64,000 nucleotides of DNA from Alphaproteobacteria bacterium (GTDB lineage Bacteria > Pseudomonadota > Alphaproteobacteria > UBA828): contig CBDCRW010000005.1 in the NCBI GenBank assembly GCA_965221125.1, positions 1 through 64,000 on the forward strand, in the 5' to 3' direction. The notes under the pieces were generated by a model. The model had not been told where the DNA came from. It made no database searches and was given only the letters and a program-made list of their open reading frames with translations. Shown here one piece after another: positions 1-62,030 of the stretch. The position numbers and the translations under genes are program-made. Each line of letters opens with the position of its first letter. The first letter of the stretch is position 1.

Positions 1-138
1 GCGCGGGCGACGGAGCGCAGGGAGAGCACGGTCCGCTGGCACATCAAGCACATCTTCAACAAGCACGGCTTCAATCGGCAATTGGAGCTGGTGCAACTGG
101 TGCTGTCCCTGGCCACCATTCCGGAGTCGGGGCGCTGA
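1..138 (+). CDS. LuxR-family HTH regulator, C-terminal end (partial)
   Basis: Frame 1 reads ARATERRESTVRWHIKHIFNKHGFNRQLELVQLVL*, resembling the LuxR/GerE C-terminal STVxxHxxxIxxK pattern. Confidence 0.65.
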   Translation, partial: ARATERRESTVRWHIKHIFNKHGFNRQLELVQLVLSLATIPESGR

Positions 139-642
139 AGCCGTCGAGGAAATGCCGGCAGGTGCCGGGCACTTCAGCCGTCAATTTTCGCTCGGCAGCG
201 GCGGCGGCATCCGCAGTTATTGATGGCCGCCGGCGGCAGAGTTTTCGGCCTTGTTCCGGACGCGGAATCGCGTTCGCGACCGCACAGTTTCCGCGCCGCA
301 TCGCCGCGGCCAGGCGCGCCACGTGCTCACGACCGGGCCGCTTGTCTCCCGCGCACGTGCGGACCCCGCCTATGGGGGCTTTACGCGCTCGGCACCACGA
401 CCTATGGTGGGAGACACAGGGCGAACACGCCAGGAAATCGATGGCAGCGGCCGGCCGTCGCCCTGATTGTTGCGCCTGTATCGAGAGCCAGGAGCCTGCC
501 CGGTGGGCCGACGATCCGCAGCGCGTCTACGCCTTCGGCACGCCGCCGTGAGCCGCGCAGTTTGCGACCGCCGGGCGGCGCGGCCGCGCAATCGCCCGGA
601 TACGGACGGCCCGCGCGGCGTCATCGGGCAAGGCCCCGGCGC

Positions 643-2277
643 ATGAACAGGCTTTACTACGGCGACTGCCTGGCGGTGATGGAGGAAATGCCGCCCGGCA
701 GCGTCGACCTGATCTACCTCGATCCGCCCTTCAACTCGAGCCGCGACTACAACGCGATCTACACGGACGAGACCGGCCGCCCCCTGCCGACGCAGATCGA
801 GGCGTTCTGCGACACCTGGATCCTCGACGAGGACCGCGAACGCGCGATCCGCCAGATGCCGATCCTCATGCGCGAAGCCGGCATCGACGACGAGGTCGCG
901 GAGTTCTGGCGCCTCTGGGTCAAGGCGCTGCGCAAGACGAACCCGCGCATGCTGGCCTATCTCTCCTACATGGTGCAGCGGCTGCTCCCCATGCGCGGGC
1001 TGCTGAAGGCGACCGGCTCCATCTACCTGCACTGCGACCCGACCGCCAGCCATTACATAAAGATCATGATGGACGCCATATTCGGGCACGAAAACTTCAG
1101 AAACGAGATTACGTGGCAGCGCACGGAAAGTCACAACACGGCCGATCGCTACGGAAATATTGCCGACATACTGTTGTATTACGCAAAGTCCAGCCAAGCC
1201 ATATGGAACCCGCAGTATCAGGACTACGGCGACGCGCAGTTGAGCCGCTTCCGCCACATGGACGGCGACGGCCGCCGCTACAAGCTGGAGAACCTCACGG
1301 CCCCGCGGCCGAACTCGAATTCCGGCAAGTTCAGCTGGCGGGGCACGCTGCCGGGGCCCACGCGCGGGTGGGGCTACAACGTCGAGCAACTGGAGGCATG
1401 GTGGCACGAGGGGCGCATCAGGACGAAAGCCGACGGCACGCCCCGGACCGACGGACTGAAGGTCTACCTGGACGAGACGCAGGGCAAACCGCTGCAGAAC
1501 ATATGGACCGACATTTCCCGAATCCCCAATACGTCGTCGGAGCGGATGGGCTACGCAACGCAAAAGCCCTTGGCGCTGCTGGAGCGCGTCATCATGGCGA
1601 GTTCGGAACCCGGAGATCTGGTCTTCGACCCGTTCTGCGGCTGCGCCACGACCATCGAAGCCGCGCACAGGCTGGGGCGGCGATGGATCGGCATCGACAT
1701 CGCGATCCACGCAATAAAGCGCGTCGCAAAGGTGCGCCTGCAGGAGCGACTTAGGCTGGTCGAAGGCAGCGATTTCGAGATCAAGGGCATGCCGCGCGAC
1801 ATGGAAGGCGCGCGCGATCTTTGGAAGCACGACAAGTACCACTTTCAGAAGTGGGCCGTCGAACAGGTGGACGGATTTGTCACCGCGCGAAAGAGCGGCG
1901 ACGGCGGCATAGACGGCCGCCTGTACTTCGCCATGCCGCAGGAAGATGCGTGGGAACGCGACCCGCTCCGTTCCATGGTGATCGAGGTGAAGGGCGGCAC
2001 TAATGTCGGCATCGATGTCGTCCGCAATTTGCGCGGCATTCTGGAGCGCGAGGACGCGGAAATGGCGGGGCTGATCGTGCTGGAAGAACCTGGTCACAAG
2101 AAGCGCGCGAGCTTCGGCCGCGAGCTGGCATTCGCCGGCGACTTGACGGTGCACGGGACGACATACCCCCGCATGCAGCTTCTCACGGTCTCGGAGATTC
2201 TGGCCGGCAAGCGCTTCACGACGCCGAGCGCGGTGGGGCGCGGCTCCCGGCAGCAACCGCTCGCCCTGGAGCGCTAA
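643..2277 (+). CDS. Amino-DNA methyltransferase (beta class) fused to a C-terminal Mrr-like PD-(D/E)XK domain
   Basis: MNRLYYGDCL start, DPPF catalytic motif, YATQKP, FDPFCG SAM motif; C-terminal DGGIDG...IEVKGG. Confidence 0.9.
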   Translation: MNRLYYGDCLAVMEEMPPGSVDLIYLDPPFNSSRDYNAIYTDETGRPLPTQIEAFCDTWILDEDRERAIRQMPILMREAGIDDEVAEFWRLWVKALRKTNPRMLAYLSYMVQRLLPMRGLLKATGSIYLHCDPTASHYIKIMMDAIFGHENFRNEITWQRTESHNTADRYGNIADILLYYAKSSQAIWNPQYQDYGDAQLSRFRHMDGDGRRYKLENLTAPRPNSNSGKFSWRGTLPGPTRGWGYNVEQLEAWWHEGRIRTKADGTPRTDGLKVYLDETQGKPLQNIWTDISRIPNTSSERMGYATQKPLALLERVIMASSEPGDLVFDPFCGCATTIEAAHRLGRRWIGIDIAIHAIKRVAKVRLQERLRLVEGSDFEIKGMPRDMEGARDLWKHDKYHFQKWAVEQVDGFVTARKSGDGGIDGRLYFAMPQEDAWERDPLRSMVIEVKGGTNVGIDVVRNLRGILEREDAEMAGLIVLEEPGHKKRASFGRELAFAGDLTVHGTTYPRMQLLTVSEILAGKRFTTPSAVGRGSRQQPLALER

Positions 2278-2700
2278 CCCGCAGGCTGAGCGCGCGGCGC
2301 AAACGATCTGCCGCGCGCCGGACCCCGATGCACGATGCGTCGCGTGGGCCGGAGGCGTCCCCATCCGCGAATCCCCCGGTCGCGTGGCGGATTCAAGCCT
2401 GAAAGCCGGCGTGTCACGGGAATATTTCCCCGTCGTCGTCGTTTGGCGGGGCATTTCTCCTTGACGGCCGGGCCTGTGAGCGATAGGGAACGAACCGTTT
2501 GGTCCATTCATGGGCGAGACGCAAGGCATCTGCATTGCGCGCACCGGCACCGCCCACCGTGCCCTGCGTGAGAGACGGACCCGCTTGGGCACCGTAACGG
2601 CGGTAGCCTGCCCGCTCTCTCGCCCGCGCCCCGCGCTCGCACCCCGGATCGAGGACGGCAAAGTGAGATACGGCAACGAACTTTTTTTGGGGTTTTTGCC

Positions 2701-2755
2701 GAGATAAGCCGAGACAAGCCGAGACAAGCCGAGACAAGGTGAGACAAGGTGAGAC
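2701..2755. repeat. 10-bp tandem repeat GAGACAAG(CC/GT), about 5.5 copies
   Basis: gagataagcc gagacaagcc gagacaagcc gagacaaggt gagacaaggt gagac read directly. Confidence 0.85.
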
Positions 2756-2960
2756 GGCACATCGCGGTCCACAGGCGCCCGGCCGCGCCACCGCGCTGCG
2801 CGCCTCTCCGTGCCTGTCGGCCGGACAGCGCCGCGCAGACCATGACCGTGGCGAGAAATGCGGGCCGGTCTCATGCCGCCATCCTGCCGCGAACTCCCCG
2901 CCCCGTTCACCGCACCATGGTCCGGGTGCCGGGAGGGAGGCACCGCCCTTTCCACTGGCG

Positions 2961-3006
2961 TCCCCCCTCCGCCCTTCAAGGGGGGAGGGGGCCAGGGGGA
3001 GGTGGG
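2961..3006. repeat. BoxC/REP-like palindromic repeat upstream of DUF559
   Basis: CCCCTCCGCCC-loop-GGGGGAGGGGG-CCAGGGGGAGGTGGG; near-identical copies at about 6950-6994, 30077-30120 (inverted) and 41466-41508. Confidence 0.75.
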
Positions 3007-3022
3007 TGGTAAAATCCAGCGC

Positions 3023-3460
3023 ATGGTCAAACCGAGGACGCACCGCGCCCGAGGCTTGCGCAAGGACGCCACGGCGGCCGAGCGTCTCCTGTGGCGGGCC
3101 TTGCGGGATGCGGCGCTCCCGGTGAGGATTCGCCGCCAGCACCCCATCGGGCGCTACATCGCGGACTTCGCCATTCCCGCGCGCAAGCTCGTCATCGAGA
3201 TCGACGGCGGCCAGCACGTCACCGCCGCGCGCCGGGATGCCGCCCGGACGGGCAACCTGGAGGCGCGGGGCTGGCGCGTTATCCGTTTCTGGAACAACGA
3301 CGTGACGGGCAACCTGGCCGGTGTGCTCGAGACCATCGTTGCTGAAATAGAAAGGAGATTATATACGAAGGTCACAATTCATCTCGTCTCGGACGAACGG
3401 CAATCGAAGATATCCTCGGGATTGACGCCCGGCCCCCTTTTGGTACACTCCCGGGCGTGA
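3023..3460 (+). CDS. DUF559 (Vsr-like) endonuclease; native C-terminus displaced by the IS1595 insertion
   Basis: ARGLRKDATAAERLLW, RRQHPIGRYIADF, IEIDGGQH, RFWNNDV; residues after IVAEIE are encoded by the IS left end. Confidence 0.85.
   Translation: MVKPRTHRARGLRKDATAAERLLWRALRDAALPVRIRRQHPIGRYIADFAIPARKLVIEIDGGQHVTAARRDAARTGNLEARGWRVIRFWNNDVTGNLAGVLETIVAEIERRLYTKVTIHLVSDERQSKISSGLTPGPLLVHSRA
3422..3449 (+). promoter_or_regulatory. Sigma70-like promoter in the IS left arm
   Basis: TTGACG-N16-TACACT with extended -10 TG; no convincing ORF downstream. Confidence 0.6.
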
Positions 3461-3560
3461 TCATTGGAGTGGGTGGCGACGTGCTCGTTGACCGGTCGAC
3501 GGGTTCCCTCGCCTTCGGAGGATCTCCCGTCCAACGCTGGTCCTCACCCTCCCCATCCCG
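3456..3560 (+). ncRNA. Candidate structured ncRNA
   Basis: Nested stems GGAG/CTCC, GACCGG/CTGGTC, GACGGG/CCCGTC, CCTC/GAGG directly after the promoter. Confidence 0.35.
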
Positions 3561-3580
3561 TTCGTAACCTAAGTAGATAA

Positions 3581-3656
3581 TGGAGACCCGAGCCGGATTC
3601 GAACCGGCGTAAACGCCATTTCCAGGGACGCGCCTAACCACTCGAGCCATCGGGTC
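3581..3656 (-). tRNA. Atypical tRNA-like gene: GGA anticodon on a short-variable-loop, tRNA-Cys-like body
   Basis: 76 nt: acceptor GACCCGA/TCGGGTC, U73, encoded CCA, T-arm GCCGG-TTCGAAT-CCGGC, D-loop AGTGGTTA, anticodon loop CTGGAAA; C31-U39 mismatch. Confidence 0.7.
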
Positions 3657-3717
3657 TCCATCTATTTATCGGCGTTGGCACCCTCCCCTAAGTATTTGTT
3701 TTAGAAGAAAGTTCGTC

Positions 3718-3760
3718 TTGACGCCCGTCTCCAGACGTGTTACACTTCGGTCACAATTCA
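3718..3760 (+). promoter_or_regulatory. Transposase promoter followed by an internal copy of the TIR motif
   Basis: TTGACG-N17-TACACT (3718-3746), then GGTCACAATTCA (3749-3760) identical to 3370-3381; GGAGG RBS at 3761. Confidence 0.7.
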
Positions 3761-3772
3761 GGAGGATCGGGG

Positions 3773-4753
3773 ATGGGCAAGAGTTCACCGGGCAAGGGCG
3801 ACCGCGAGGGCATCGGCCTCGTCACCCTGCTGCGGATGTTCCCCGACGACGAGGCAGCGCGGCGGTGGTTCGAGGAGCGGGTGTGGCCGGACGGCCCCCA
3901 CTGCCCCCACTGCGGCAGCCTCAACGTCCAGGCCGGCATCAAGCACAAGACGATGACGCACCGGTGCCGCGACTGCTCCAACCGCCCGATGTTCAGCCTG
4001 CGGACCGGCACCGTCATGCAGGGCTCGAAGCTCGGCTACCAGACCTGGGCCATCGCGGTCTACCTGCTGACGACGAGCCTCAAGGGCACCAGCAGCATGA
4101 AGCTGCATCGGGATCTTGAGATCACCCAAAAATCTGCTTGGCATCTGATGCATAGGCTCCGGAAATCGTTCGAGAACGACCCCGAGCCGTTCAAGGGTCC
4201 GGTGGAGGCGGACGAGACGTACATCGGCGGCAAGCGTAAGAATATGCACGCCAAGAAACGGCGGGAATTGAAGGGCCGGGGTGCCGTGGGTAAGACCGCC
4301 GTGGTCGGTGTTCGGGACCGTGACACCAAGCGCGTGAGCGCCGGGGTGGTGGAGGCGACCGATGGTCCCACGTTGCAGGGATTCGTGGCCGAGCGGGCCG
4401 CCGAGGGGACCACGGTCTATACCGACGAGGCGCGGGCGTACCAGGGCATGTCGTTCGCCCACGAGGCAGTTGCCCACAGCGTCGGGGAGTACGTCCGGGA
4501 CCAGGCTCACACCAACGGGATGGAGAGCTTCTGGTCGATGCTCAAGCGCGGGTACGTCGGCACCTACCACAAGCTCAGCCCGAAGCACCTCGACCGGTAC
4601 GTGACCGAGTTCGCGGGACGGCACAACGCCCGCGCCGCCGACACCCTCGATCAGATGACCGGCATCGTGACGGGAATGGTGGGGAAGCGGCTCCGGTACG
4701 CGGACCTGATCGCGGACAACGGACTGGAGTCGGGGGCGAAGCCGACTAAGTAG
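3773..4753 (+). CDS. IS1595-family DDE transposase
   Basis: Zn ribbon CPHCG...CRDC, EADETYIGG, VYTDE, HTNGMESFWS motifs. Confidence 0.95.
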   Translation: MGKSSPGKGDREGIGLVTLLRMFPDDEAARRWFEERVWPDGPHCPHCGSLNVQAGIKHKTMTHRCRDCSNRPMFSLRTGTVMQGSKLGYQTWAIAVYLLTTSLKGTSSMKLHRDLEITQKSAWHLMHRLRKSFENDPEPFKGPVEADETYIGGKRKNMHAKKRRELKGRGAVGKTAVVGVRDRDTKRVSAGVVEATDGPTLQGFVAERAAEGTTVYTDEARAYQGMSFAHEAVAHSVGEYVRDQAHTNGMESFWSMLKRGYVGTYHKLSPKHLDRYVTEFAGRHNARAADTLDQMTGIVTGMVGKRLRYADLIADNGLESGAKPTK

Positions 4754-4758
4754 GATTC

Positions 4759-4974
4759 ATGGAAGAGAACGCCTTTTATCCCAAGACCGTGGACAAGCCT
4801 AGTCCTGCTAATTATCCGACCGAACAAGATTTCGCGCTTGCTCACAGAGAGTGGTTTGAATGTACCGTGCTTCCTGAGCAACCTGATTGGTGTAATTGGT
4901 GTCAGTCTGTGACGATGGATATTTCAACCGGGAAATTTCATCACAAAGATGGGTGTCCAAACTCAAGAGATTAG
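4759..4974 (+). CDS. Small hypothetical passenger protein (CxxC...H..C)
   Basis: Starts 5 nt after the transposase stop; low GC; overlaps an opposite-strand ORF. Confidence 0.45.
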   Translation: MEENAFYPKTVDKPSPANYPTEQDFALAHREWFECTVLPEQPDWCNWCQSVTMDISTGKFHHKDGCPNSRD

Positions 4975-5077
4975 TCTTGACGTCGTCCTTGTGACTACCC
5001 CACTGGATCAGTAGGCGCGCCACAGCTTTGGTGAATACCTCGACCGACTTTACGTCATACGACTCCCGTTCACCCAT
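4808..5077 (-). CDS. Small hypothetical passenger protein
   Basis: AGGAGGAG RBS upstream and co-oriented with the two secreted-protein genes, but overlaps 4759-4974. Confidence 0.35.
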   Translation of the reverse strand: MGERESYDVKSVEVFTKAVARLLIQWGSHKDDVKTNLLSLDTHLCDEISRLKYPSSQTDTNYTNQVAQEARYIQTTLCEQARNLVRSDN

Positions 5078-5113
5078 GCCATCTCCTCCTGTTTTGATGG
5101 GTTGATCTGATAC

Positions 5114-5659
5114 TCACCGCAGCATCTGCTGCATCAGCCGCTGCAGGTTTACATGAGAGCGGTTGGTGCTGCCAGCGGGGCTCTCCCGCTGGTTCTTGTA
5201 CGCGACCCACCGTCCCGAGCGATTTTGGCAGGCGAAGGCGTAGTTGAGGCGGTAGTTCTTCGCCCCCGCGGGCCACGAGCGGTAGCGGTAGTTCCAGCAG
5301 TACCCTCCCCGGGGCGTTCGGTAGAATCCCCCCACGATGCCGTCGACCTCCCAGCGGTACGGACCGTCATGCACCACGACGGGGAAGGGGACCACGACCT
5401 TGCGCGGGTCGGTGCCGGGGCCTCCCCAGCCGACGAGGTGCTCCTTGAAGCCGGTCTCGCCATCCCGGCTGTACCCCAGGAATCGCATCTGGCGGGACCG
5501 GTGACTCTCGCCCTGCCGCTCGTGGACCGTCCGAGCGGACGCGCCGGAAACGGGGGCGGGGGTGAACTGTGCCCCGCCGGCGACCACCCGAAGGTCCGGG
5601 GTGCAGGCGGCAACGGAGACGACCCCTGCCAGTAGGGTTATCGCGACGAGCCCTCTCAT
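5114..5659 (-). CDS. Hypothetical lipoprotein (passenger)
   Basis: MRGLVAITLLAGVVSVAAC lipobox; 2-nt gap to the upstream gene. Confidence 0.65.
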   Translation of the reverse strand: MRGLVAITLLAGVVSVAACTPDLRVVAGGAQFTPAPVSGASARTVHERQGESHRSRQMRFLGYSRDGETGFKEHLVGWGGPGTDPRKVVVPFPVVVHDGPYRWEVDGIVGGFYRTPRGGYCWNYRYRSWPAGAKNYRLNYAFACQNRSGRWVAYKNQRESPAGSTNRSHVNLQRLMQQMLR

Positions 5660-5661
5660 GG

Positions 5662-6153
5662 CTAAAACGCGATCGTGCTCTTGGTCCCGGTGCAGTGCCG
5701 GGTGTAGAGAATCTCCAGCGCGCGGCGCAAACGGTCCGGGTCCAAGTTGTACATCGGCAGGGTGACCCGCTTGTGGCTCCCCATCGAGACCCCGGATATG
5801 ACGAGGCTGAGGTAGAGCAGATCGTTCTGCGGCTCGATGTCCGCCACGACATCGTCCCCGGCGAGAGTCATGACGAGGACCTGCCCGTTGTCGGGGAAGT
5901 AGCGGTACTCGATCTCGATGAACTCGGGGTCGACGTTATTCCAGTAGATTCGGACGTAGCCGCCCTTGCTGTCGTCCATGCCGGAGACGCACGCGCTCCG
6001 GTCGTAGATGCGGGCGGTGGCGACCCCGTTGGCCTCCCGGAGGGGGTCCCCCGTCGTCAGGTAGTTGGTAAGCTGCTGGAAGGCGTCTCCCTGCCCCGCC
6101 TCGGCCCCGGTTGCCACCATGACTGCGGCGAGCAGTATCATCGACCATCTCAT
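5662..6153 (-). CDS. Hypothetical secreted protein (passenger)
   Basis: MRWSMILLAAVMVATGAEA signal peptide with an AxA site. Confidence 0.65.
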   Translation of the reverse strand: MRWSMILLAAVMVATGAEAGQGDAFQQLTNYLTTGDPLREANGVATARIYDRSACVSGMDDSKGGYVRIYWNNVDPEFIEIEYRYFPDNGQVLVMTLAGDDVVADIEPQNDLLYLSLVISGVSMGSHKRVTLPMYNLDPDRLRRALEILYTRHCTGTKSTIAF

Positions 6154-6409
6154 CCCACACCCCACTCCGTCGCCCCGGTCCCGGCGGGCGCCGGGCCGTT
6201 GCAAGCAACACACGGGTTAGCGTGGGAAGCCCCGCCTATTCGTCCGGGACGAGGGAGCTACCCCCGACCCTGCACGGACTCTTGTATTCGAGCGGGCGAC
6301 CCGACTCAGCGGGTACCCGTGTCTTGCTTGCGGAAACGAGCGTAGGGGAGAGGACGCCGGACGGTCAACCCGACTTGACTACCGGGCGGACGGCGACCAT
6401 CAAGAGAAC

Positions 6410-6604
6410 GTGGATCAGGAACCCCGCGAGGACCCGAAACCCCCCTCCTGCCTCACGTGCCAGCACTGGTGGCCGCGGGCGGAGGGCGGGGGAACGTGCG
6501 GCAAGGTGATCGGGACCCAGAACGTCACCGAGGCGTACGACTGGTGCCGTGAGCACCAACCCCGGGGCCTGCGCGGGGTGGCCCACAAACAAACGACGTG
6601 GTAG
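6410..6604 (+). CDS. Small Cys-rich hypothetical protein
   Basis: CLTCQHW...TCG...DWCREH, a four-Cys metal-binding pattern. Confidence 0.5.
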   Translation: MDQEPREDPKPPSCLTCQHWWPRAEGGGTCGKVIGTQNVTEAYDWCREHQPRGLRGVAHKQTTW

Positions 6605-6617
6605 GAGCGAAACCGCC

Positions 6618-6779
6618 GTGAAGGACGAGTCGAAGCCTCCCGTCGTCCGAATCAAACCCTCCAGCTATCAGCCGCCCAAGGCCGAACTGGAAGAGGACGT
6701 ACGCATCGACGCCACCCCGGAGGAACTGGCGCGTGCGGTGCTGCGTCAGGTGAGAGTGGTCAAGGACCCGGAGGCGTGA
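6618..6779 (+). CDS. Small hypothetical protein at the IS right end
   Basis: AGGAG RBS, GTG start, YQPPKAELEEDVRIDATPEELARAVL; stops 6 nt before the TIR. Confidence 0.55.
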   Translation: MKDESKPPVVRIKPSSYQPPKAELEEDVRIDATPEELARAVLRQVRVVKDPEA

Positions 6780-6821
6780 CCGGGCAATTGTGATCTAGGT
6801 ATATAATCTCCAATAGAAAAG

Positions 6822-7083
6822 ACCCCCACCTCACCCCAACCCTCTCCGCCCCCAGGGGCGGAGAGGGAGTAGTCCCCGCCCTCTCAGCCTGCGTTCCCCC
6901 TCCGCCCTGCCGGATTGGACGGGAGTAGCCCCGCTTTTTCCGATGGCGTTCCCCCTCCGCCCTTCAGGGGGGAGGGGGCCAGGGGGAGGTGGGCGTTGGA
7001 CCCGGAGCGCACCCCGCCCGAGCGGGAAGGACAAGCGCCCCCTCCTCACCCCGGCCCTCTCCTCCCCGAGGGGAGGAGAGGGG
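6822..7083. repeat. Cluster of BoxC/REP-like palindromes
   Basis: CCTCACCCC-N-CCCTCTCC-loop-GGAGAGGG units at 6822-6868 and 7038-7083; opposite-orientation unit at about 6950-6994; partial unit near 6895. Confidence 0.8.
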
Positions 7084-8802: not shown

Positions 8803-9078
8803 GGCTCCGAGGCTCTCCTCATTCTGAAGAGGCCTCGTGCGGGGCGTGTCGTACCTGAGAAGCAGATGCCGGTGTTTCGCGCTTGAACCCGGCGGATTGC
8901 GCGGACAAGCGCTAACGCATTCCAACCATGACTATTTTTGAACTCCTCCCCTGGCGCTCGTGCCTGCCTTGCCGGCAGGCATGCGCACGTGTGCGGTCGC
9001 GCGTGATTCCGATCCGTTCCGAAGTGATGACGGCCGCCTTGCGCTATGCGGGCCGGCCCACGCCGAGTGGTGACGGGA

Positions 9079-10284
9079 ATGCCGCGCCGTAGCACGCTTG
9101 CGCTCACGGGCCGCGCGGTGGACGCGCTCGCCGCCGCGGACCGCGACGTCATCTTCTGGGACCGCGAGCTCGCCGGCTTCGGCGTGCGCGTCTACCCCTC
9201 GGGCCGGAAGGTCTACGTCGTGCAAAGCCGCGCGGGCGGCGGCCCCCGCCGCGTCACCCTCGGCACCCACGGCGAGATCACCGCGACGCAGGCGAGGCTC
9301 CGCGCGGCCCAGGTCATCGACCGCATCAAGCGGGGCGAGGAGCCGGCCGTGCTGCCGCCCCAGGCCGGCACCACCGTCGCCGACCTCGCCGAGCGCTACC
9401 TGAGCGCCCACGTAGCCCAGAACTGCAACGCGCATACCGCCGGCATCTACCGGGGCTCGCTCGAGAACCACATCCTGCCCGCGCTCGGCATGATGCCGCT
9501 CGCCATGGTCGAGAGCGCCCACGTGGCCGCGCTCCACTACAACCTGCGCGAGACACCGCGCGCCGCCAACCGCGCGCTCTCGGTCCTCTCCAAGATGTTC
9601 ACGCTGGCCGCCGCCTGGGGCATGGTGGCCGACGGCGCCAACCCCTGCCGCGCCGTCCGCAAGTACAGGGAGAAGAAGCGCGAACGCTTCCTCAGCCGCG
9701 ACGAGTACCGGCGGCTGGGCCAGGCGCTCGCTGAGGCGGAGGCCGAGGCGGCGGCCAGCGCGGACGGCGCGGTCTCCCCCTACGCCATTGCGGCGCTGCG
9801 CCTGCTCATGCTCACCGGCTGCCGGCTGAACGAGATCCTCACGCTCCGCTGGGACGACGTGGACCGCACCGCCGGCGAGTTCCGCCTCCGCGACGGCAAG
9901 ACGGGTGCGCGCATGGTCCCGCTCACCCCCACGGCGGAGGCGGTGCTGGCAGGGATCGAGCGCGTGCCCGCCAACCCCTGGATCATCGCCGGCAAGCAGC
10001 CCGGCACGCATCTCACCACCATCACCGCGGAGTGGTATCGCCTCCGCGCCCGCGCCGGCCTCGACGACGTGCGCATCCACGACCTCCGCCACTCCTATGC
10101 CAGCCGCGCGCTCGCCGCCGGCGAGAGCCTGTCCATGATCGGCAAGCTGCTGGGCCACGCCGACATCCAGAGCACCGCCCGCTACGCCCACCTCGCGCGC
10201 GAGACCGAGCGCACCTCCGCCGACAGGGTCGGCGCCAGCATCGGCGCCGACATCGCACCCGGCAGGGACGACCCATCAATATGA
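9079..10284 (+). CDS. Tyrosine integrase with arm-binding domain, copy 1
   Basis: WDRELAGFGVRV N-terminal domain; TGCRLNE, KTG, HDLRH, LLGH, TARY. Confidence 0.92.
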   Translation: MPRRSTLALTGRAVDALAAADRDVIFWDRELAGFGVRVYPSGRKVYVVQSRAGGGPRRVTLGTHGEITATQARLRAAQVIDRIKRGEEPAVLPPQAGTTVADLAERYLSAHVAQNCNAHTAGIYRGSLENHILPALGMMPLAMVESAHVAALHYNLRETPRAANRALSVLSKMFTLAAAWGMVADGANPCRAVRKYREKKRERFLSRDEYRRLGQALAEAEAEAAASADGAVSPYAIAALRLLMLTGCRLNEILTLRWDDVDRTAGEFRLRDGKTGARMVPLTPTAEAVLAGIERVPANPWIIAGKQPGTHLTTITAEWYRLRARAGLDDVRIHDLRHSYASRALAAGESLSMIGKLLGHADIQSTARYAHLARETERTSADRVGASIGADIAPGRDDPSI

Positions 10285-11477
10285 GTGAACCGACGCACGG
10301 GACGATCACCGACGCGGTGGTGGGCGCGCTCGCGCCGGGCCGGGACCGGGTGCTGTGGGACCGCGCGCTCACCGGCTTCGGCGTCCGCGTCTATCCCTCC
10401 GGCGCACGGGTCTACGTCGTGCAGACCAGGGGACCCAAGGGCACCAGACGCACGACCGTCGGCCGCCACGGCGTCATCGGTGCGGGCGAGGCACGCAGGC
10501 GCGCATCCCTCATCATCGCCCGTGTGCACGCCGGCGAGGACATCGCCGACCGCCCCACCCCGAAGCCCGCCGGCCCCACCCTCGCCGCCCTCGCTGCGCG
10601 CTACCTGCGCGAGCACGTCGCGGTCCGCTGCAAGCCCAGCACCGCAGCCCAGTACAGGCTCGCCATCGAGCGCCATATCGTCCCCGCCCTCGGCACGCTC
10701 CCGGTCTCTGCCATCGCGCGCCGCGACGTCGCCGACCTGCAGCATTCCCTCCGCGACCGCCCGGCCATGGCCAACCTCGTCGTGGCGACGCTCTCGCGCA
10801 TGATCGACCAGGCCCAGGCCTGGGGCGTCGCCGCCGAAGGGGTCAACCCCTGCCGCGCGGCCCAGAAGTACAGGGTGGGCCGGCGCGAGCGCTTCCTCAC
10901 CGACGCCGAGTTCCGGCGCCTAGGCAGCGCGCTGGACGAGCTGGAGGCGACGGGGCGCGTCTCCCCCCATGCGGCGGCCGCGCTCCGCCTTCTCATGCTC
11001 ACCGGCTGCCGGCGGAACGAGATCCTGACGCTCCGCTGGGAGGACGTGCACTTGGGCGCCCGTGAGCTTCGCCTCGCCGACAGCAAGACCGGCCCGCGCA
11101 CGGTCTCGCTCTCGGCGGAAGCGGCGGAGGTCCTCGCCGCCATCCCCCGCGTTGCGGGCAACCCGTGGGTGATCCCCGGCGCGCGGGCGGGCCAGCGCTT
11201 GTCCAGCATCTTCGAGCCGTGGGCCCGCGTGCGCGCCCGCGCCGGCCTCGACGACGTGCGCATCCACGACCTGCGTCACTCTTATGCCTCACGCGCGCTG
11301 GCGCTGGGCGAGAGCCTGCCGGTGATCGCGAAGCTCCTCGGCCACGCGCAGATCCAGACGACCGCCCGCTACACCCACCTCACGCGCGACGCCGTCAGGG
11401 ACGCCGCAACGCGCGTCGCCGGCGACATCGCGCAGGACGTGCTCCCGACGAGCACCGCGCCCCAGGATACGCGCTAG
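10281..11477 (+). CDS. Tyrosine integrase with arm-binding domain, copy 2
   Basis: ATGA overlap with copy 1; TGCRRNE, KTG, HDLRH, LLGH, TARY. Confidence 0.92.
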   Translation: MSEPTHGTITDAVVGALAPGRDRVLWDRALTGFGVRVYPSGARVYVVQTRGPKGTRRTTVGRHGVIGAGEARRRASLIIARVHAGEDIADRPTPKPAGPTLAALAARYLREHVAVRCKPSTAAQYRLAIERHIVPALGTLPVSAIARRDVADLQHSLRDRPAMANLVVATLSRMIDQAQAWGVAAEGVNPCRAAQKYRVGRRERFLTDAEFRRLGSALDELEATGRVSPHAAAALRLLMLTGCRRNEILTLRWEDVHLGARELRLADSKTGPRTVSLSAEAAEVLAAIPRVAGNPWVIPGARAGQRLSSIFEPWARVRARAGLDDVRIHDLRHSYASRALALGESLPVIAKLLGHAQIQTTARYTHLTRDAVRDAATRVAGDIAQDVLPTSTAPQDTR

Positions 11478-45815: not shown

Positions 45816-45967
45816 TCCCGTCCTCCAGTTCCAGTTTCTCCGCACGCCCGCTGCAGATGGCCTGCCGCGACGCGAGGGGGCGGCCATTATAGCCCGCCAC
45901 CTCGGCGCACGTAGTCCGCAGTCTAGGAAACGGGACTAGGACTAAGCAAGCCCCGCATCGTCGGGGC

Positions 45968-48057
45968 CAGGAACATTTTTTAGTCATGGCTGAGAGGGCG
46001 GGATGACCGAGAGCGGGCAGGCTTGGGCCGATGAAGGTCCTGGCCGAGCTTGGCTGGGCGGCTGCATGGGGTCCGCGGGGGCCGGTAGGGCTCGGTTTTC
46101 GGGCTCGCCGGGCAAAGCGATCCCGCCGCGCCGTTCGACGGCGCGTCCCGTCGCGCTCTGCGACGCGGTTACGCCCGCAGGATCATGCAGCGGGCGCGAT
46201 CAGGATCGCGTCGAGAGCCTCCTGGGCGCGGGCGGCATAATGCCGGTTGGCCTCGGGCAGGAAGCGGAAGCGCCCGTCGCAGCGCACGATGGCGATGGCC
46301 GCGTTGGTCAGGCAGGAGAGATTGCGCGGCAGGTGGCGCACGTACGCCCGGCAGCGGTCTTCGTCATAGGTGAAGTCGCGCACGTAGTGCAGCCGGTTCT
46401 CGATGTGCCAGTGATTGCGGACCAGAGCCAGAAGCTCCTCGGGCCCGGCGCGGTCTGCGCCGAGCGAGGTCAGGCTCCAGGTCACCTCGACGCTGCGCTC
46501 GCCGGTCTTGAGGATCTCGCGCTCGCGTTCGATGCGCATCGCCTGGCGGCGTCCGTGAAGGTTGGCGTAGCCGTCCCATTCGGCAGCGGAGAGGTCGACG
46601 ACGGCGCAGCGGCGGCGCTCGATGCGGCCATGGCCCTTGTCGACGGTTTCGTGCCAGGGCGCGTCGGAGAAGTCGATCGCCTTGAGGTCTTCGAGGATGG
46701 TCTCCTGATTGTCCTTCACCGCGGTGACCACGTAGTCGGCGCGACGCCCGAGCAGGCAGCGCGCGGTCTCGTGCTGGGCGTGCATCGCATCGAGGGTGAC
46801 GGTCCGGCCTGCGAGGTCGAGACTGCTGGAGAGTTCGCGCACGGCGGGGATCTCGTTGCTCTTTCTATCGACCTCGACCTGTCCCAGGACCATGCCGGTC
46901 TTGTGCACCAGCGCCGCGACCATCATGCGCCGCCCGTCTTCGGTCTGCTTCGAGGCGCCGCGCAGGTCCTTTCCGTCCATGGCGACCGGGGCGTGCGCGC
47001 CGTCGTGCTGGCCGGTCCACCGGCCGATGGCGTTGTCCAGCGTCTCCGGCGGCAGGGCGGCGAGGATGTTGTGGAAGGTGGTGATCGCGGGCGCGGTGTA
47101 GCGCTTCTTCGAAGGGCTCCAGAACGCGCCGACCGCCTCGAGCTGCTCCTGCGAGAGCAGGGCGGCGAACTGGGCGAAGGCTGTCGAGCCCCGGTAGCCG
47201 GCAAGGCGGGCGGCGACGGCAACCGCCAGCACGGTCTTCAAGGGATAGCGCTTGCCCCGGGCATGGCGGCACTCGGGCACCTCGCCCAGGCACTCGAACA
47301 GGCTGCGCAGCCGGGGCGCCGTCATCGGCTCGCTGTGTTGCTCGGCGTTCCAGTTCGCCGGGATCTCGGCCCGGCTCAGCGCTTCGGCGGCGCCATCGCT
47401 AAGTTCGAACACGAAGACCTCCTTGGGCTGGCCGTGGTGGCGCCAGCGCGGAGCAGCTCCGGGGTCACGGGCAAAGCCGCGCGTCATCCCCAGCGAGCGC
47501 CAGTTCGACGCGCGGTAGCAGGTGCCGGCGAAGCGCGCGGGATCGACGAAGGTCTCGGCCAGGAGCGCCGGGTATCCATGCACCGCCTGGGTGTCCGCAG
47601 ACAGCCGCCGCAGGCTCAGCCCCAGAACCCGCGAGGCCAGGTTGGGAACCCGCTCAGGCGTCAGGATCACGAAGCGCGAGTTGTTCGCGATCAGATGCAG
47701 GCGCCGGAACTGCTGCTCCGCCGACCAGCCGATCCAGCGGTCGCGCGCGGCCAGCTTGAACGCGCCCGGCTGCCAGCCGATCAGGGCGAGCCAGGTCTCG
47801 CCATGCACCGCGACATGGCGCAGCCCCTTGCCGACGACGCCGTGGAATCGCAGGTAGTGGTGCTCCTCCACCAGCCGGTCCCAGCGCCGGTGCTCCCGCG
47901 CGCCCCAGGTCGGGCGCACCGTGACCGCACGCAGATCAATGGACGAATCCAGGCCCGGCAACGTCGCCATGGCCGCTACACTGCCACAGCGAAAACGAAA
48001 TGACCAGCGCCGCGATCACCTCACGCCGCTCGCCGGGCGGACAAAAAACGAGCCCTG
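45968..48057 (-). mobile_element. ISAs1-family element
   Basis: 10-bp TSD TCGTCGGGGC at 45958-45967 and 48058-48067; imperfect CAGG....TTTTT.GTC termini. Confidence 0.88.
46183..47970 (-). CDS. ISAs1 transposase with an N-terminal DUF4338-like domain
   Basis: N-terminal HHYL, RDRWIGW, NNSRF, ETFVD, CYRASNW; C-terminal DGK, KSNEIP, DAMH, HWHIENRLH. Confidence 0.9.
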   Translation of the reverse strand: MATLPGLDSSIDLRAVTVRPTWGAREHRRWDRLVEEHHYLRFHGVVGKGLRHVAVHGETWLALIGWQPGAFKLAARDRWIGWSAEQQFRRLHLIANNSRFVILTPERVPNLASRVLGLSLRRLSADTQAVHGYPALLAETFVDPARFAGTCYRASNWRSLGMTRGFARDPGAAPRWRHHGQPKEVFVFELSDGAAEALSRAEIPANWNAEQHSEPMTAPRLRSLFECLGEVPECRHARGKRYPLKTVLAVAVAARLAGYRGSTAFAQFAALLSQEQLEAVGAFWSPSKKRYTAPAITTFHNILAALPPETLDNAIGRWTGQHDGAHAPVAMDGKDLRGASKQTEDGRRMMVAALVHKTGMVLGQVEVDRKSNEIPAVRELSSSLDLAGRTVTLDAMHAQHETARCLLGRRADYVVTAVKDNQETILEDLKAIDFSDAPWHETVDKGHGRIERRRCAVVDLSAAEWDGYANLHGRRQAMRIEREREILKTGERSVEVTWSLTSLGADRAGPEELLALVRNHWHIENRLHYVRDFTYDEDRCRAYVRHLPRNLSCLTNAAIAIVRCDGRFRFLPEANRHYAARAQEALDAILIAPAA

Positions 48058-48283
48058 TCGTCGGGGCGCCATGCAGACGAAAACTTTGGATATGCCGAAA
48101 CGGCACGACTGGGAACGAATTTCGGCGTGGGTCTGCGACGCACGATTGCCGCCCCCGGCATGCCGCCCTTGAGGCCGGGCGGGCGGGACGGGATGATGTC
48201 GGCGCCGGGATGCCGGGCACCTCCCTGGCCCCTCGGGGCCGGGGGACGAGGGCGGGGGCAATCGTGACCGATGCAGCGCAATC

Positions 48284-55316: not shown

Positions 55317-55460
55317 AGCATTGGAGTATCGAGACATGGCGGCACGCTCTATCCGCAAGCCAGCCGCGCTCAAGGAAGCGATGACCAAGCATTGGAGTAT
55401 CGAGACATGGCGGCACGCTCTATCCGCAAGCCAGCCGCGCTCAAGGAAGCGATGACCAAG
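55317..55460. repeat. 71-bp perfect tandem duplication
   Basis: 55317-55387 equals 55388-55458; ends at the IS110 junction. Confidence 0.92.
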
Positions 55461-55609
55461 ATGCCGTAATGGGGCTCGGCGCCAATCGGCACCATCGGAG
55501 CCTGTCCCGATGACGACGAATCGGGTGTCGTTGCCCTTGCACGCTCAGCGTGCTCACGGGGTCTTGCCGGAAGGCGCGCCCCAATCCTTCGAGAGGAAAG
55601 GGCAACGAC

Positions 55610-56653
55610 ATGGCTGTCTATATCGGGCTGGATGTATCGCTGGCAAGCACGACAATCTGCGTGATCGGCGACAAGGGCAAGATCGTGACCGAGGCTCAGG
55701 TCGCCAGCACGCCTGACGCGTTGGTTGCGTTCATGGGCAAGCTGGAGCACGAGATCGCCGTGATCGGTCTTGAGGCCGGTCCCCTGTCCCACTGGTTGCA
55801 CAAGGGGCTGACCGACGCCGGCTTCGAGGCCGTCCTTATGGAGACCCGGCGGGTGAAGGCGGCGCTGAAGGCGATGCCGATCAAGACGGATCGCCGGGAT
55901 GCCGAGGGCATCGCACGGCTCTTGCAGATGGGCTGGTTCAGGCCGGTGCACTGCAAGTCGGTATCGTCGCAGGAGATGCGCGCACTGCTGACCTCGCGCA
56001 GGTCCGTGAAGGGCGCGCTCACCGATATGGAACTCTCGCTGCGCGGCGTGTTGCGCAACTTTTGCCTGAAGCTGGGCCAGGTCTCGAAGGGCCGCTGGGA
56101 GGCCCGCGTCCGGGAGTTGATCGCAGGCAACGCGATGCTGGAGGCCGCCGCCGAACCGATCCTGCGCGCGCGGGTGGCTCTGCGCCGCGAGCTGGCCGGC
56201 CTGGAGAAGCTGGTCCGCGATCTGGCCAGGGAGGATCCGGTATGCCGGCTGCTGATGACCATGCCCGGCGTAGGCGCGGTCGTGGCCCTGACCTTCAAAT
56301 CGGCGATTGACGATCCCGGGCGGTTCCGGAGATCGAAGGATGTCGGCCCCTGGGTGGGACTGACGCCGGGCCGGGACCAATCCGGCGAGCGAGATATTGT
56401 CGGCGGCATCACGAAGTGCGGCGACGCAGGTCTGCGTACCGCGCTCTATCAGGCCGCCACGGTGATGCTGAACGGCACCGCCGGGCCGAACTGGCTGAAG
56501 GCCTGGGCGCTTCGTCTGGCGAAGCTCCGTGGCAAGAAGCGTGCGACCGTCGCCCTGGCCCGGCGCATCGGCGTGGTACTTCACCGGATGTGGCGGGACG
56601 GCACCGAGTTCCGCTTCACGCGCGAGGAGGCGATGGCGCTCCAGACGGCATAG
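55610..56653 (+). CDS. IS110 DEDD recombinase
   Basis: YIGLDVS, GLEAG, KTDRRDA, MPGVG, GLTP..DQSG, ALARR. Confidence 0.95.
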   Translation: MAVYIGLDVSLASTTICVIGDKGKIVTEAQVASTPDALVAFMGKLEHEIAVIGLEAGPLSHWLHKGLTDAGFEAVLMETRRVKAALKAMPIKTDRRDAEGIARLLQMGWFRPVHCKSVSSQEMRALLTSRRSVKGALTDMELSLRGVLRNFCLKLGQVSKGRWEARVRELIAGNAMLEAAAEPILRARVALRRELAGLEKLVRDLAREDPVCRLLMTMPGVGAVVALTFKSAIDDPGRFRRSKDVGPWVGLTPGRDQSGERDIVGGITKCGDAGLRTALYQAATVMLNGTAGPNWLKAWALRLAKLRGKKRATVALARRIGVVLHRMWRDGTEFRFTREEAMALQTA

Positions 56654-56699
56654 GCGCGGCTGCATCCCACCGGCAATCGGAAGCGAGAGGAGGAAAGAG

Positions 56700-56960
56700 C
56701 CGCGCCTGAAGGTGGCGATCCACCGGTGTCCCCTCGCCGGGACGCGGTTCCCGTTGATGCACGCGCTGCGTCTTGTCGGCCGAACCGTTTCATCGCGTTC
56801 GAGCACGCGACCAAGATCGGCACTCGGGAATCGTTTGGACCAGGCATGACGTTGGCAGCCGCTGCGCTGACCACGGACGGAAGCGAGAGCCTGGCGACGG
56901 ACACATCCGGGAATCCCGCTTCCTTCTTTGCCGCGCAGACGAGTCAGTTAGCCGCTCCCG
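56700..56960 (+). ncRNA. Putative bridge/seek RNA (ends approximate)
   Basis: Segments CTGCGTCTTG and GACCAAGA match the target; GGCAT and ACGGAAG match the donor junction; each pair flanks a hairpin. Confidence 0.7.
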
Positions 56961-57142
56961 CCATGGCAATCCGCTATGTTGACCGCGCCTGTGATTCGAT
57001 TTGCAACAGGCTACGGTGCTTCATGTGCGAGCCACCGTGCCAGGCCGGAAGATCGTGAAGATCGGTGTTTGACATCAACCGCCCCATTACGGAAGACGCA
57101 GTTGGTGGCTTCCCTTTCTAAGGGGAAGTTAGGTAGAAATGT

Positions 57143-57182
57143 AAAGCTCGCAGGGGTAACACCTTGCGGGCTTTCATTTTTT
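57143..57182 (+). terminator. Terminator at the left edge of the three-integrase element
   Basis: AAAGCTCGCAGGG-loop-CCTTGCGGGCTTT-CATTTTTT. Confidence 0.7.
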
Positions 57183-57257
57183 GTTGAATTTCATGATTGA
57201 CACGTTTGGAGTCGCAATTCTAGGTAAGCCGGAACAAGGCAAGAGCGTAAACTTTCG

Positions 57258-58502
57258 ATGCCCGAGAGCGTCCGCAGAATCAGACTTCCCGGCGGCGAGA
57301 CGCTCCCCGCCCTGGTCGAGCCCGGCTCGGCCCCCGCGCCCGAGCCGATACGGTATGCGGTCTCCATTCTCAGAAACGCCGGCCGCGCCGAGAACACGAT
57401 CGAGGCGCACATGCGCGCGATCGCGGCGGCCCGGGTGTGGGCGCACTCGAACGGGCTCTCCCTCGAAGCACGCATGGCCACGGGCGCCGGTCTGGAGCTG
57501 CGGGAGGTCGAGAGTCTTTCCCATGCGCTGAAGACCGCCCGGGTTCCGGATCGGACCGAGCGTCCCCACCAAGCCAATGTCCTGCCGCTTTCCAGATCGG
57601 GCAAGGAGCTTCATCGGCACCTTCCCCACGACTGCGATGAGATGCTGGACCCCCAGACCGGAGCCAACCGTGTGCGGTCCGTCGCTGCCTATCTCGACTG
57701 GCTTGCAAGCCACAGCCGTGCCGCCGGATCGCAGCAGCTCCTTCGCGACACCGTCAAGGCTCTGACCGCCCGGGCGAAGGTGGGCGCGCGTCAACCGTCC
57801 GAGCCCAGGAAGGGCCTGTCGCCGGAACAGCGCGACCGGCTGTTCGCCGTCATCGATCCGTCCTCGCCGGAAAACCCGTTCCGGAGCGAGGCGGTTCGCT
57901 ATCGCAACCTTGCCGTTGTTGCCTGCCTTGACGAGACCGGCATGCGCAGGGGCGAGCTTTGCGGCCTGAAGATCCCGGACATCGACTTCAGGAAACTGAC
58001 GATCTCGATCCATCGGCGCCCTCCGGACCCCCGGGACCCTCGTCGGCAGAAGCCGAAGACCAAGTCCGGCGCACGGCCCGTGCCGATCAGGCCGGAGCTG
58101 GCGGACATCCTCTTCGCCTACCTGTCGGATTGGCGCCGGACCGAACCCGGCGCCCGGATGCACGCCTATGTCTTCGTGTCCCATGCAGGAATCAGGCCGG
58201 GAGCGCCGTTGACCCCGAGAAGCGTGGGCAACGTCTTCGCTGCGCTCGAAAGCGTTCTCGGCTTCCGTCTCCATCCTCACCTGTTGCGCCACACCTGGAA
58301 CGACAGGTTCTCGGCCGCGATCGACGGCAGGGCGGAGCGTGGCGATCGCACCCCCGAGGCGAGCGAGGAGCGCATCCGCAACTTCCTGATGGGATGGAGT
58401 CCGGATTCGAAGATGGCGGCGGTCTACACGCACCGTCACGTCGAACGGGCGGCCGAGGCCGCCCTGAGAGGCATGCACCAGGGATTGTTCGAGGGTGAGT
58501 AG
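57258..58502 (+). CDS. Tyrosine recombinase A
   Basis: TGMRRGE, KTK, HLLRH, LMGW, AVYT. Confidence 0.9.
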   Translation: MPESVRRIRLPGGETLPALVEPGSAPAPEPIRYAVSILRNAGRAENTIEAHMRAIAAARVWAHSNGLSLEARMATGAGLELREVESLSHALKTARVPDRTERPHQANVLPLSRSGKELHRHLPHDCDEMLDPQTGANRVRSVAAYLDWLASHSRAAGSQQLLRDTVKALTARAKVGARQPSEPRKGLSPEQRDRLFAVIDPSSPENPFRSEAVRYRNLAVVACLDETGMRRGELCGLKIPDIDFRKLTISIHRRPPDPRDPRRQKPKTKSGARPVPIRPELADILFAYLSDWRRTEPGARMHAYVFVSHAGIRPGAPLTPRSVGNVFAALESVLGFRLHPHLLRHTWNDRFSAAIDGRAERGDRTPEASEERIRNFLMGWSPDSKMAAVYTHRHVERAAEAALRGMHQGLFEGE

Positions 58503-62029: not shown

Positions 62030-62030
62030 C

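Follow-up and report, generated by a model that had tools for sequence, protein, structure and literature searches.

The window analysed here, a stretch of 64,000 nucleotides from contig CBDCRW010000005.1 of the genome assembly of a sponge-associated alphaproteobacterium (GCA_965221125.1, lineage UBA828), carries near its left end an IS1595-family transposon with a tRNA-like gene inside it. The transposon occupies positions 3354 to 6811 (3,458 bp) and is framed by terminal inverted repeats of 24-28 bp and by a perfect 8-bp target-site duplication. The left inverted repeat (IRL, GGAGATTATATAC…GGTCACAATTCA) lies at 3354-3381 on the plus strand, the right one (IRR) at 6788-6811 on the minus strand, and the two copies of the duplication, AATAGAAA, at 3346-3353 and 6812-6819. 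The corresponding empty site was found in sponge-metagenome contigs of X6 and X7, which match 3300-3353 and then continue with the letters of 6820-6849. From left to right, the element consists of IRL, a promoter-like site P1, the tRNA-like gene on the opposite strand (3581-3656, minus), a second promoter-like site P2 with the transposase gene, about 2 kb of passenger open reading frames (ORFs), and IRR. The transposase (3773-4753, plus strand, 326 amino acids) possesses a zinc ribbon and a DDE domain (PF12762, 1.7e-40, and PF12760, 1.2e-09, in Pfam; NF033547, 183 bits, in NCBIfam); its relatives in the plasmid collection are all below 60% identity. With this type of transposase, and with inverted repeats and an 8-bp duplication that enclose the tRNA-like gene, the element belongs to the IS1595 family. 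A boundary at 3683/3687, which would place the gene outside the insertion sequence (IS), was considered and overturned by the inverted repeats, the duplication and the empty site; to judge from the sequences compared, position 3687 is the junction of a conserved backbone and a variable cargo.

ARAGORN predicts at 3581-3656 a 76-nt tRNA with anticodon GGA, one of two tRNAs in the window, and labels it tRNA-Ser. The Rfam tRNA model (RF00005) matches 3584-3656 on the minus strand with 38.9 bits, which is above its gathering score of 29 and makes the gene a member of the tRNA family; the host's tRNA-Cys and its canonical tRNA-Ser(GGA) both reach 60.9 bits with the same model. In the ARAGORN drawing, the acceptor stem comprises 7 bp (GACCCGA / UCGGGUC), the D stem 3 bp with a C13.A22 mismatch, and the anticodon stem contains a C31.U39 mismatch; the D loop has one extra base. 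The T loop UUCGAAU, the GG of the D loop, G15:C48, U33 and A37 are canonical, the anticodon loop reads CUGGAAA, and CCA is encoded after U73. G.U pairs occur on the tRNA-sense strand at U12.G23 and U29.G41. Where a tRNA-Ser has a long variable arm and G73, the gene has a 5-nt variable loop and U73. The host genome (7 contigs, 4.58 Mb, 69% G+C, 92% complete, 5.8% contamination) also carries a canonical tRNA-Ser(GGA), 88 nt in length with the long arm and G73, and a tRNA-Cys(GCA); the tRNA-like gene is therefore an extra copy.

The most conspicuous property of the gene is its sealed acceptor end. Two arms of a perfect 12-bp inverted repeat lie at 3580-3591 and 3650-3661; on the tRNA strand, the former contains the 3' acceptor strand plus UCCAU and the latter the leader AUGGA plus the 5' acceptor strand. 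The leader thus pairs with U73-CCA and beyond, extending the acceptor stem by a helix of 6 bp, as counted by script. In the 44 other CCA-ending ARAGORN calls of the host genome, the extension amounts to 0-3 bp (10 calls that lack CCA were left out of the count). The initial annotation had described the 76-nt cloverleaf with GGA, the 5-nt variable loop, U73 and the encoded CCA, the sealing 12-bp repeat, and the position of the gene inside the IS and divergent from the transposase, all of which was borne out by ARAGORN, Rfam and the borders of the element. Its further claim that both strands carry an acceptor-like stem ending in TCCA stands for the minus strand, where the gene is located; the plus-strand "acceptor" is the mirror image of the palindrome.

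Among the host's ARAGORN calls, the closest relative of the gene is the host's own tRNA-Cys, with which it shares 59 of 76 residues, an identical T arm, U73-CCA and a non-Watson-Crick 13:22 pair. By these sequence features the gene is derived from a tRNA-Cys but diverged, in agreement with the kinship to tRNA-Cys and the missing serine arm pointed out earlier. A GGA copy is present in two of the 21 genomes of the genus, namely in the host (G000) and in G019. The homology to G019 covers only about 125 bp (window 3551-3674) at 71% identity, whereas flanking housekeeping DNA is 89% identical; the copy has no transposase nearby and sits in a variable spacer adjoining a tRNA-Thr(GGU). A third Cys-like homologue is the first of two tRNA-like genes in a sister transposon of G004, which is described below. 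All three genes have the U73 discriminator of tRNA-Cys; its anticodon GCA is replaced by GGA in the window and in G019, and the G004 gene has an 8-nt loop, CCGGCAAU. For these three sequences, a script was used to lay the helices on each of them and to count pair cells: 74 of the 80 cells are standard pairs, and 12 of the 27 pair positions are changed on both sides. The remaining six cells are non-standard: 13:22 in each of the three genes, two cells of G019 (a G.G at 4:69; the outermost extension pair) and one of G004 (an A.C at 1:72). Counted with their adjoining unpaired bases, the anticodon loops measure 9, 9 and 8 nt (CCUGGAAAU, UCUGGAAAU and CCGGCAAU in G000, G019 and G004), and the best-paired fold of G019 has a 9-nt anticodon loop.

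A sponge-metagenome variant, X6, was available as a contig of 178 nt that covers 3541-3717 at 93% identity. Three of its 12 differences fall into the tRNA body, all of them in stems: A7>G is compensated by U66>C, and C65>U gives rise to the G49.U65 pair that is also present in G019. The anticodon loop is unchanged, so that GGA is kept, and six differences are concentrated in the 11-nt spacer 3672-3682. The compensatory changes, together with the GGA conserved in G019, a second species, and in X6, led us to reject two possibilities that the initial annotation had raised, namely that the gene is a decaying tRNA-Cys and that GGA is a private mutation or a sequencing error. Its other proposals, Cys insertion at UCY codons, a decoy for nucleases or a processing signal, are hypothetical. 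As far as can be read from the sequences, the RNA structure of the gene is under selection and is maintained, not decaying. The same data leave little to the proposal that a captured tRNA-Cys copy is drifting as a functionless hitch-hiker whose palindrome and flanks are relics of nested IS-end insertions: this very unlikely explanation would suit the low Rfam score, the cloverleaf that is not the fold of minimum free energy, the inverted-repeat-like flanks and the G019 copy without transposase beside the variable tRNA-Thr locus, but not the double-sided changes that leave the stems paired, the loops conserved while spacers diverge, or the recurrence of the sealed helix, with differing sequences, in unrelated tRNA bodies.

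Further candidates were sought by pattern scans. A GGA-loop plus T-loop pattern gave 87 stretches in the genome contigs; ARAGORN found four GGA tRNAs in 80 of these 87, one being the G019 copy and three being unrelated, tRNA-Phe-like genes with GAA>GGA. When metagenomes were scanned for GGAGAC…T loop…GTCTCC, 15 stretches came up. Seven of these represent tRNA-Cys genes, in another register, within large tRNA arrays; the other eight (five of them distinct) keep the register and are irregular tRNA-likes. They were not counted as family members because the pattern forced the shared ends and the contexts are heterogeneous. A metagenome contig (L119, 3294-3370, minus strand) holds a further tRNA-Cys-like gene, flanked by RmuC and Cas_GSU0053 genes; it shows the same GGA/UCC sealed end as the window gene and, as in the first G004 gene, the loop comprises 8 nt (CCGGCAAA). 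Dense tRNA arrays, with as many as 39 genes packed into about 13 kb, are present on seven metagenome contigs (L118, L121, L122, L124, L126, L127, L128); in every array, one tRNA-Cys carries an additional inverted repeat of 7-10 bp outside its acceptor stem.

A DNA search of the order (49 genomes) identified three close relatives of the transposon, in G014, G004 and G003, at 76-78% identity; the conserved backbone leader occurs in these three and the host only (four of the 49 genomes). The three elements are complete (4,995, 4,271 and 3,982 bp), with perfect 8-bp duplications and the same inverted-repeat tips; the tip of IRL is common to both ends of these sister transposons and to a short relative, L138. 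It was the comparison of the transposase leader with L138 that allowed the left end of the family, GGGGATTATATAC…GTCACAATT, to be recognised. In all four elements, a slot between the left end and the transposase is occupied, by tRNA-like cargo in three cases and by small ORFs in G014. The slot of G004 contains the Cys-like homologue mentioned above and a second gene with an Arg-like body and the loop UUGACUA (anticodon GAC). The slot of G003 contains a Ser/Sec-like tRNA-like gene of type II, whose D stem is long and whose loop reads UUGCGAA (GCG). The best Rfam match of the latter is the tRNA-Sec model with 56 bits, a label that is not diagnostic, as the same model gives 47-54 bits to ordinary tRNA-Ser genes of these genomes. 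The G014 slot (L175, 7506-7999) codes for a hydrophobic ORF of 40-45 residues on the cargo strand and a membrane-like ORF of 117 residues on the opposite strand. Hence the survey of related IS1595 elements that had been proposed along with the first description of the gene did yield tRNA-like cargo with varied anticodons. The 8-nt loop CCGGCAAU of G004 in place of CUGGAAA and the 9-nt loop in the best-paired fold of G019 argue against a codon-specific role for the family as a whole.

A sealed helix with at least 5-6 extra leader:trailer pairs is the hallmark common to all five tRNA-likes. According to the script, the extension comprises 6 bp in the window and the first G004 gene, but 5 bp in G019 and G003; for the second G004 gene, at least 6 bp were judged by eye. 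The sealing sequences differ (GGA/UCC, CGGC/GCCG, GGUCGC/GCGACC), and in the three Cys-like genes the extension positions -4:76 and -5:77 covary. The CCA itself is not conserved: G019 and G003 have CCG instead, and the second G004 gene has CGA.

Beyond the close relatives, none of 11 class-level IS1595 loci contains a tRNA, and an Rfam scan of 20 distant loci detected a tRNA in one (L167), outside the slot. This 88-nt tRNA (1165-1252, minus strand, in G020) combines a Ser-like long variable arm and G73 with the Asn anticodon GUU and follows directly on a terminator-like hairpin, about 210 nt downstream of an IS1595-family transposase. The host genome itself contains a second identity-conflicting tRNA on contig C7 (563753-563843; L003 2164-2254, L150), with a Ser-type body (long variable arm, G73-CCA), C37 and the anticodon AGG (Pro codon CCU). 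It scores 50.7 bits with Rfam. Its promoter-like site is good, as judged by eye, its acceptor end is unsealed (2 bp), and the 3' end of another IS1595-family transposase is about 140 nt away; no inverted-repeat partner of this second IS1595 copy was found. A type-II tRNA on contig C3 (534997-535084, L151) has a 6-nt loop, CUCGAA; ARAGORN calls it "tRNA-?(Arg|Ser)(cg)" and Rfam gives it 40.7 bits.

The flanks of the cargo hold several recurrent elements. Directly 5' of the gene lies GATAAATAG (3662-3670, minus strand), which reads CUAUUUAUC on the plus strand and is invariant in the four transposons, including G014, which keeps it without any hairpin; G019 retains GATAAAT, followed by GG. GATAAAT ends 6-7 nt before tRNA position 1, and GATAAATAG may accordingly be a -10-like element for the cargo or, on the plus strand, a U-rich tract after a large hairpin. 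Abutting the 3' end of the gene, an inverted-repeat-like sequence (3562-3581, plus strand) is the only further match to the IRR pattern in the window when up to 3 mismatches are allowed (0.00 expected), and G019 retains it. It includes the first copy (3568-3575) of CCTAAGTA, which occurs twice in the window (0.10 expected), once on each side of the cargo unit; the second copy, at 3687-3694 on the plus strand, starts the conserved backbone with P2 and the transposase. In line with this border, contigs of X5, X7 and X9 agree with the window rightwards from 3683/3687 and diverge leftwards, and the matches to G014 and G003 begin at 3686. The X7 flank equals the 5' end of a G003-type cargo (20 of 20 nt, by eye), and every cargo unit is followed by the motif AYTTAG. 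The inverted-repeat-like sequence, AYTTAG and the X7 flank could be traces of capture mediated by IS ends.

P1 (TTGACG-16-TACACT, 3422-3449) and P2 (TTGACG-17-TACACT, 3718-3746) are both oriented along the plus strand. A transcript from P1 would run inward, antisense through the tRNA-like gene and towards the transposase, whereas P2 lies directly upstream of the transposase and is conserved in the four transposons. A scan for the sigma-70-like consensus returned these two sites, where 0.2 were expected; they are consensus matches only. Inward promoter-like sites near IRL are present in all three tRNA-bearing elements (window, G004 and G003).

To the right of the transposase, the passenger region (4759-6779) contains ORFs at 4759-4974 (plus), 5114-5659 (minus), 5662-6213 (minus) and 6549-6779 (plus). 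The second begins with a lipoprotein-like N-terminus and the third with a signal-peptide-like one; none of the four has a family match in Pfam, NCBIfam or PADLOC. The region is in part common to the sister transposons, and the roughly 150 nt proximal to IRR are found in all three. On the left, the transposon has inserted at the 3' end of a gene for a DUF559 endonuclease-like protein (2858-3460, plus strand), replacing the end of its reading frame; further upstream lies a gene for an N6/N4 DNA methylase with a weak Mrr-like C-terminal match (220-2277, plus strand). This whole stretch, from position 1 to 6811 and hence from the methylase through the DUF559 gene to the end of the transposon, is 100% identical to C7:82394-89204, and the identity ends exactly at IRR. 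On C7 the left flank is unchanged, but the sequence to the right differs and shows no matching target duplication. The C7 copy may result from recombination between copies, a strain mixture or an assembly join, and was not counted as independent. At 9046-11477 there are two overlapping ORFs for P4-type tyrosine integrases (Arm-DNA-bind_3 and Phage_integrase), with paralogous stretches of 75-86% identity at C7:71-78 kb, and the first 12 kb or so of the window are island-like. Three repeats, at 45959-48074 (about 2.1 kb), 55424-57112 (about 1.65 kb) and 57110-64000 (about 6.9 kb), each have several copies of 98-100% identity, most of them 99.8-100%, on other contigs, which indicates a host genome rich in mobile elements.

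Given the observed anatomy and mobility of the gene, its descent from tRNA-Cys, its compensatory conservation and the recurrence of the slot, we favour the interpretation that the cargo RNA it specifies is tRNA-shaped and under selection, yet no standard decoder; we assign to this interpretation a probability of roughly 0.45. The proposed mechanism is as follows. The cargo gene would occupy a dedicated slot between IRL and the transposase promoter, pointing away from the transposase, and would be transcribed from the AT-rich GATAAATAG directly 5' of it. Presumably the product mimics a tRNA and is no standard decoder for Ser or Cys: its identity elements are in conflict, its anticodon arm has the 31:39 mismatch or an enlarged loop, and its end is sealed. 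The low score with the tRNA model and the lack of a dedicated synthetase among the genes found likewise count against an ordinary decoder. Such a stable RNA would be antisense to any transcript that starts at P1 or comes in from the left end, and, together with the mirror hairpin on the plus strand, it could damp read-in expression of the transposase. Within this interpretation, we rate the damping of read-in or P1 transcription into the transposase at about one in three.

Several points weigh against this interpretation. The loop of the window copy can be read as a canonical 7-nt CUGGAAA, which is the loop of the host's real tRNA-Ser(GGA), and a canonical loop with U33 and A37 plus an encoded CCA makes a decoding role possible. 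The predicted fold of minimum free energy is 6 kcal/mol more stable than the cloverleaf with its extension. No sigma-70-type promoter was detected by the promoter scan on the minus strand ahead of the gene, and if GATAAAT acts as a -10 element, transcription starts at about -3 to +1, so that the outer pairs of the sealed helix are not contained in the RNA. The covariation analysis is based on three full homologues and one contig variant, a small and mutually related sample. Finally, an antisense or insulator role leaves unexplained why the T and D loops are kept and why one sister carries small ORFs in its slot.

A wider proposal, built on the same comparisons and in our view rather doubtful, is that this IS1595 subfamily possesses a cassette-like slot for sealed tRNA mimics (Cys-, Arg- and Ser/Sec-like) with reassigned or enlarged loops, which would act for the element. 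They might do so by controlling the transposase, or as promoter-positioned, RNase-P-independent tRNAs that recode host codons, in this case by placing Cys or another residue at UCY.

The alternative that survives best, although we regard it as unlikely, is a working tRNA. RNase P cleavage or a start at +1, together with 3' trimming, would expose U73-CCA, and the tRNA would be charged by cysteinyl-tRNA synthetase (CysRS) via U73, by glycyl-tRNA synthetase or by another enzyme and would read UCC and UCU. The transposon would then deliver a mistranslating or recoding tRNA, possibly as a harmful "addiction" cargo that is restrained by the antisense transcript from P1. The canonical T loop, D-loop GG, G15:C48, U33 and A37, the encoded CCA of the window copy, a loop identical to that of the host's tRNA-Ser(GGA), the GGA kept in G019 and X6, and an AT-rich element spaced for a transcription start near +1 are all compatible with this explanation. 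However, the exchange C35>G is expected from the identity rules to reduce charging by CysRS strongly. U73 and GCA are both named as identity elements of tRNA-Cys in the main text of PMC5389517, and precedents for hybrid-identity bacterial tRNAs are described there and in PMC11415595. Further arguments against a working tRNA are the 8-nt loop in G004 and the 9-nt loop in the best-paired fold of G019, the lack of an encoded CCA in G019, G003 and the second G004 gene, and the ordinary TGC codons that specify the zinc-ribbon cysteines of the transposase. Nor was a dedicated CysRS found. In both G000 and G019, PF01406 detects two full CysRS genes. The second, however, is not confined to genomes with the tRNA-like gene: it occurs in four of the 21 genomes of the genus (G000, G019, G018 and, in part, G006), the tRNA-like gene in two. 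In G000, the two full-length genes are located at C5:241420-242313 and C6:261117-262010 (L133, L134); the extra one adjoins a CobW/COG0523-like GTPase gene and is probably a metal-sparing paralogue.

It is less likely still that the plus strand is the selected object, with the mirror hairpin serving as a terminator or insulator against outside or P1 transcription and the tRNA ancestry providing no more than raw material. The plus strand folds with -41.1 kcal/mol (z = -5.2) and is closed by a GC-rich stem of 12-13 bp that is followed by CUAUUUAUC; the closing helix is Watson-Crick paired in nearly all cells, a U-rich tract lies within 1-2 nt of the helix base in four of four cases, and inward promoter-like sites are located upstream in each of the three tRNA-bearing elements. 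On this strand, however, several internal-stem G.U pairs become C.A mismatches, whereas just two mismatches of the sense strand (C13.A22 in the window, A1.C72 in G004) turn into wobble pairs. The T-loop and D-loop sequences would be needless, G014 carries GATAAATAG but no hairpin, and a terminator scan was empty, although its loop limit of 3-8 nt misses structures of this kind.

It is improbable that the RNA serves as a decoy or sponge that diverts tRNA-targeting enzymes, for example anticodon nucleases, toxins that modify 3' ends, or contact-dependent tRNase toxins of competitors. It would offer them a loop of the Ser(GGA) type while the end of its body is protected; its loop is indeed that of the real tRNA-Ser(GGA), and a sealed 3' end would resist 3'-acting enzymes. 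The main text of PMC5389517 reports irregular tRNAs near toxin-antitoxin loci, but neither a toxin gene nor a PIN or HEPN gene was detected in or beside the transposon, the passenger ORFs belong to no Pfam, NCBIfam or PADLOC family, and the sister loops CCGGCAAU, UUGACUA and UUGCGAA indicate no single target.

Other classes of RNA or recombination site can be dismissed briefly. Rfam matches to "Plastid-ycf2" (plus strand, 25.8 bits versus a threshold of 65.7) and "ffh sRNA" (20.9 versus 35) remain below threshold. Integron attC sites are imperfect palindromes characterised by the core motifs RYYYAAC and GTTRRRY, with little constraint on the rest of their sequence. The R'' and R' cores of such a site were not seen in the sequence, and the tRNA-specific loops that are kept here would be needless for attC.

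Passenger genes are known from IS1595-family insertion sequences (ISfinder), and the element resembles them in its DDE_Tnp_IS1595 domain with N-terminal zinc ribbon, in inverted repeats that start with GG, in the 8-bp duplication and in the extra genes inside. We found no literature report of tRNA-like passenger genes in IS1595 elements, a point on which the supplementary figures of PMC5389517 may bear, and none of a transposon-slot arrangement in the literature on hybrid tRNAs. With respect to control of transposition, the nearest parallel is RNA-OUT of IS10, a simple stem-loop that controls its transposase as a cis-antisense RNA and overlaps the ribosome-binding site. As in IS10, a small structured RNA (here a predicted one) lies inside the left end, opposite the 5' leader of transposase transcripts; unlike RNA-OUT, the window gene overlaps the upstream leader with P2 downstream of it, and it is tRNA-shaped. 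A canonical tRNA-Cys(GCA) has in common with the window gene U73-CCA, G1:C72, the T arm (identical in the host's own tRNA-Cys), a non-Watson-Crick 13:22 pair and a short variable loop. The window gene differs from it by GGA, the extra D-loop base, the 31:39 mismatch, A2:U71, a score that is 22 bits lower and its location on a transposon, the normal tRNA-Cys being encoded elsewhere in the genome.

The tRNAProX of Streptomyces, as presented in PMC10404621 and PMC11415595, likewise unites the body of one identity with another anticodon and is found in more than one species. It is served by a dedicated synthetase, ProRSx, and its mistranslation is proven, whereas the window gene is IS cargo for which no dedicated synthetase was found. 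Closest in kind are the irregular tRNAs and allo-tRNAs described by Mukai et al. 2017 (PMC5389517). According to the main text of that paper, these too are extra tRNA-likes whose anticodon conflicts with their identity elements; they occur beside mobile or toxin-antitoxin genes, some are suspected not to be used in translation, and some of those near transposon or toxin-antitoxin genes failed to decode. The selC* tRNA-Cys of the same work shares U73 and a Cys-like identity with the window gene. In the irregular tRNAs the acceptor/T branch is 8/4 or 9/3 and the variable arm is mostly long, whereas the window gene has a 7/5 branch and a short variable loop; its extra pairs consist of leader and trailer bases, and the T stem is not shortened. 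The IS1595 cargo slot, the leader:trailer sealing helix and the GGA anticodon do not appear in the passages of PMC5389517 that were consulted, and its supplementary figures may hold closer cases.

Extra tRNAs with conflicting identity are already known. The case presented here adds a defined mobile context, clear boundaries and natural variants, among them different tRNA bodies that each have a sealed end, an ORF-bearing sister and a stranded copy without transposase. The recurrence of a tRNA-like cargo slot in mobile DNA suggests, at the level of sequence, an undescribed use of tRNA-shaped RNAs. If tRNA mimics regulate transposition, insertion sequences would make a new use of RNA; if they decode, a transposon would be spreading codon reassignment or mistranslation. 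With these variants at hand, it becomes testable whether the RNAs are made, whether they are charged, and whether they serve the element or its host.

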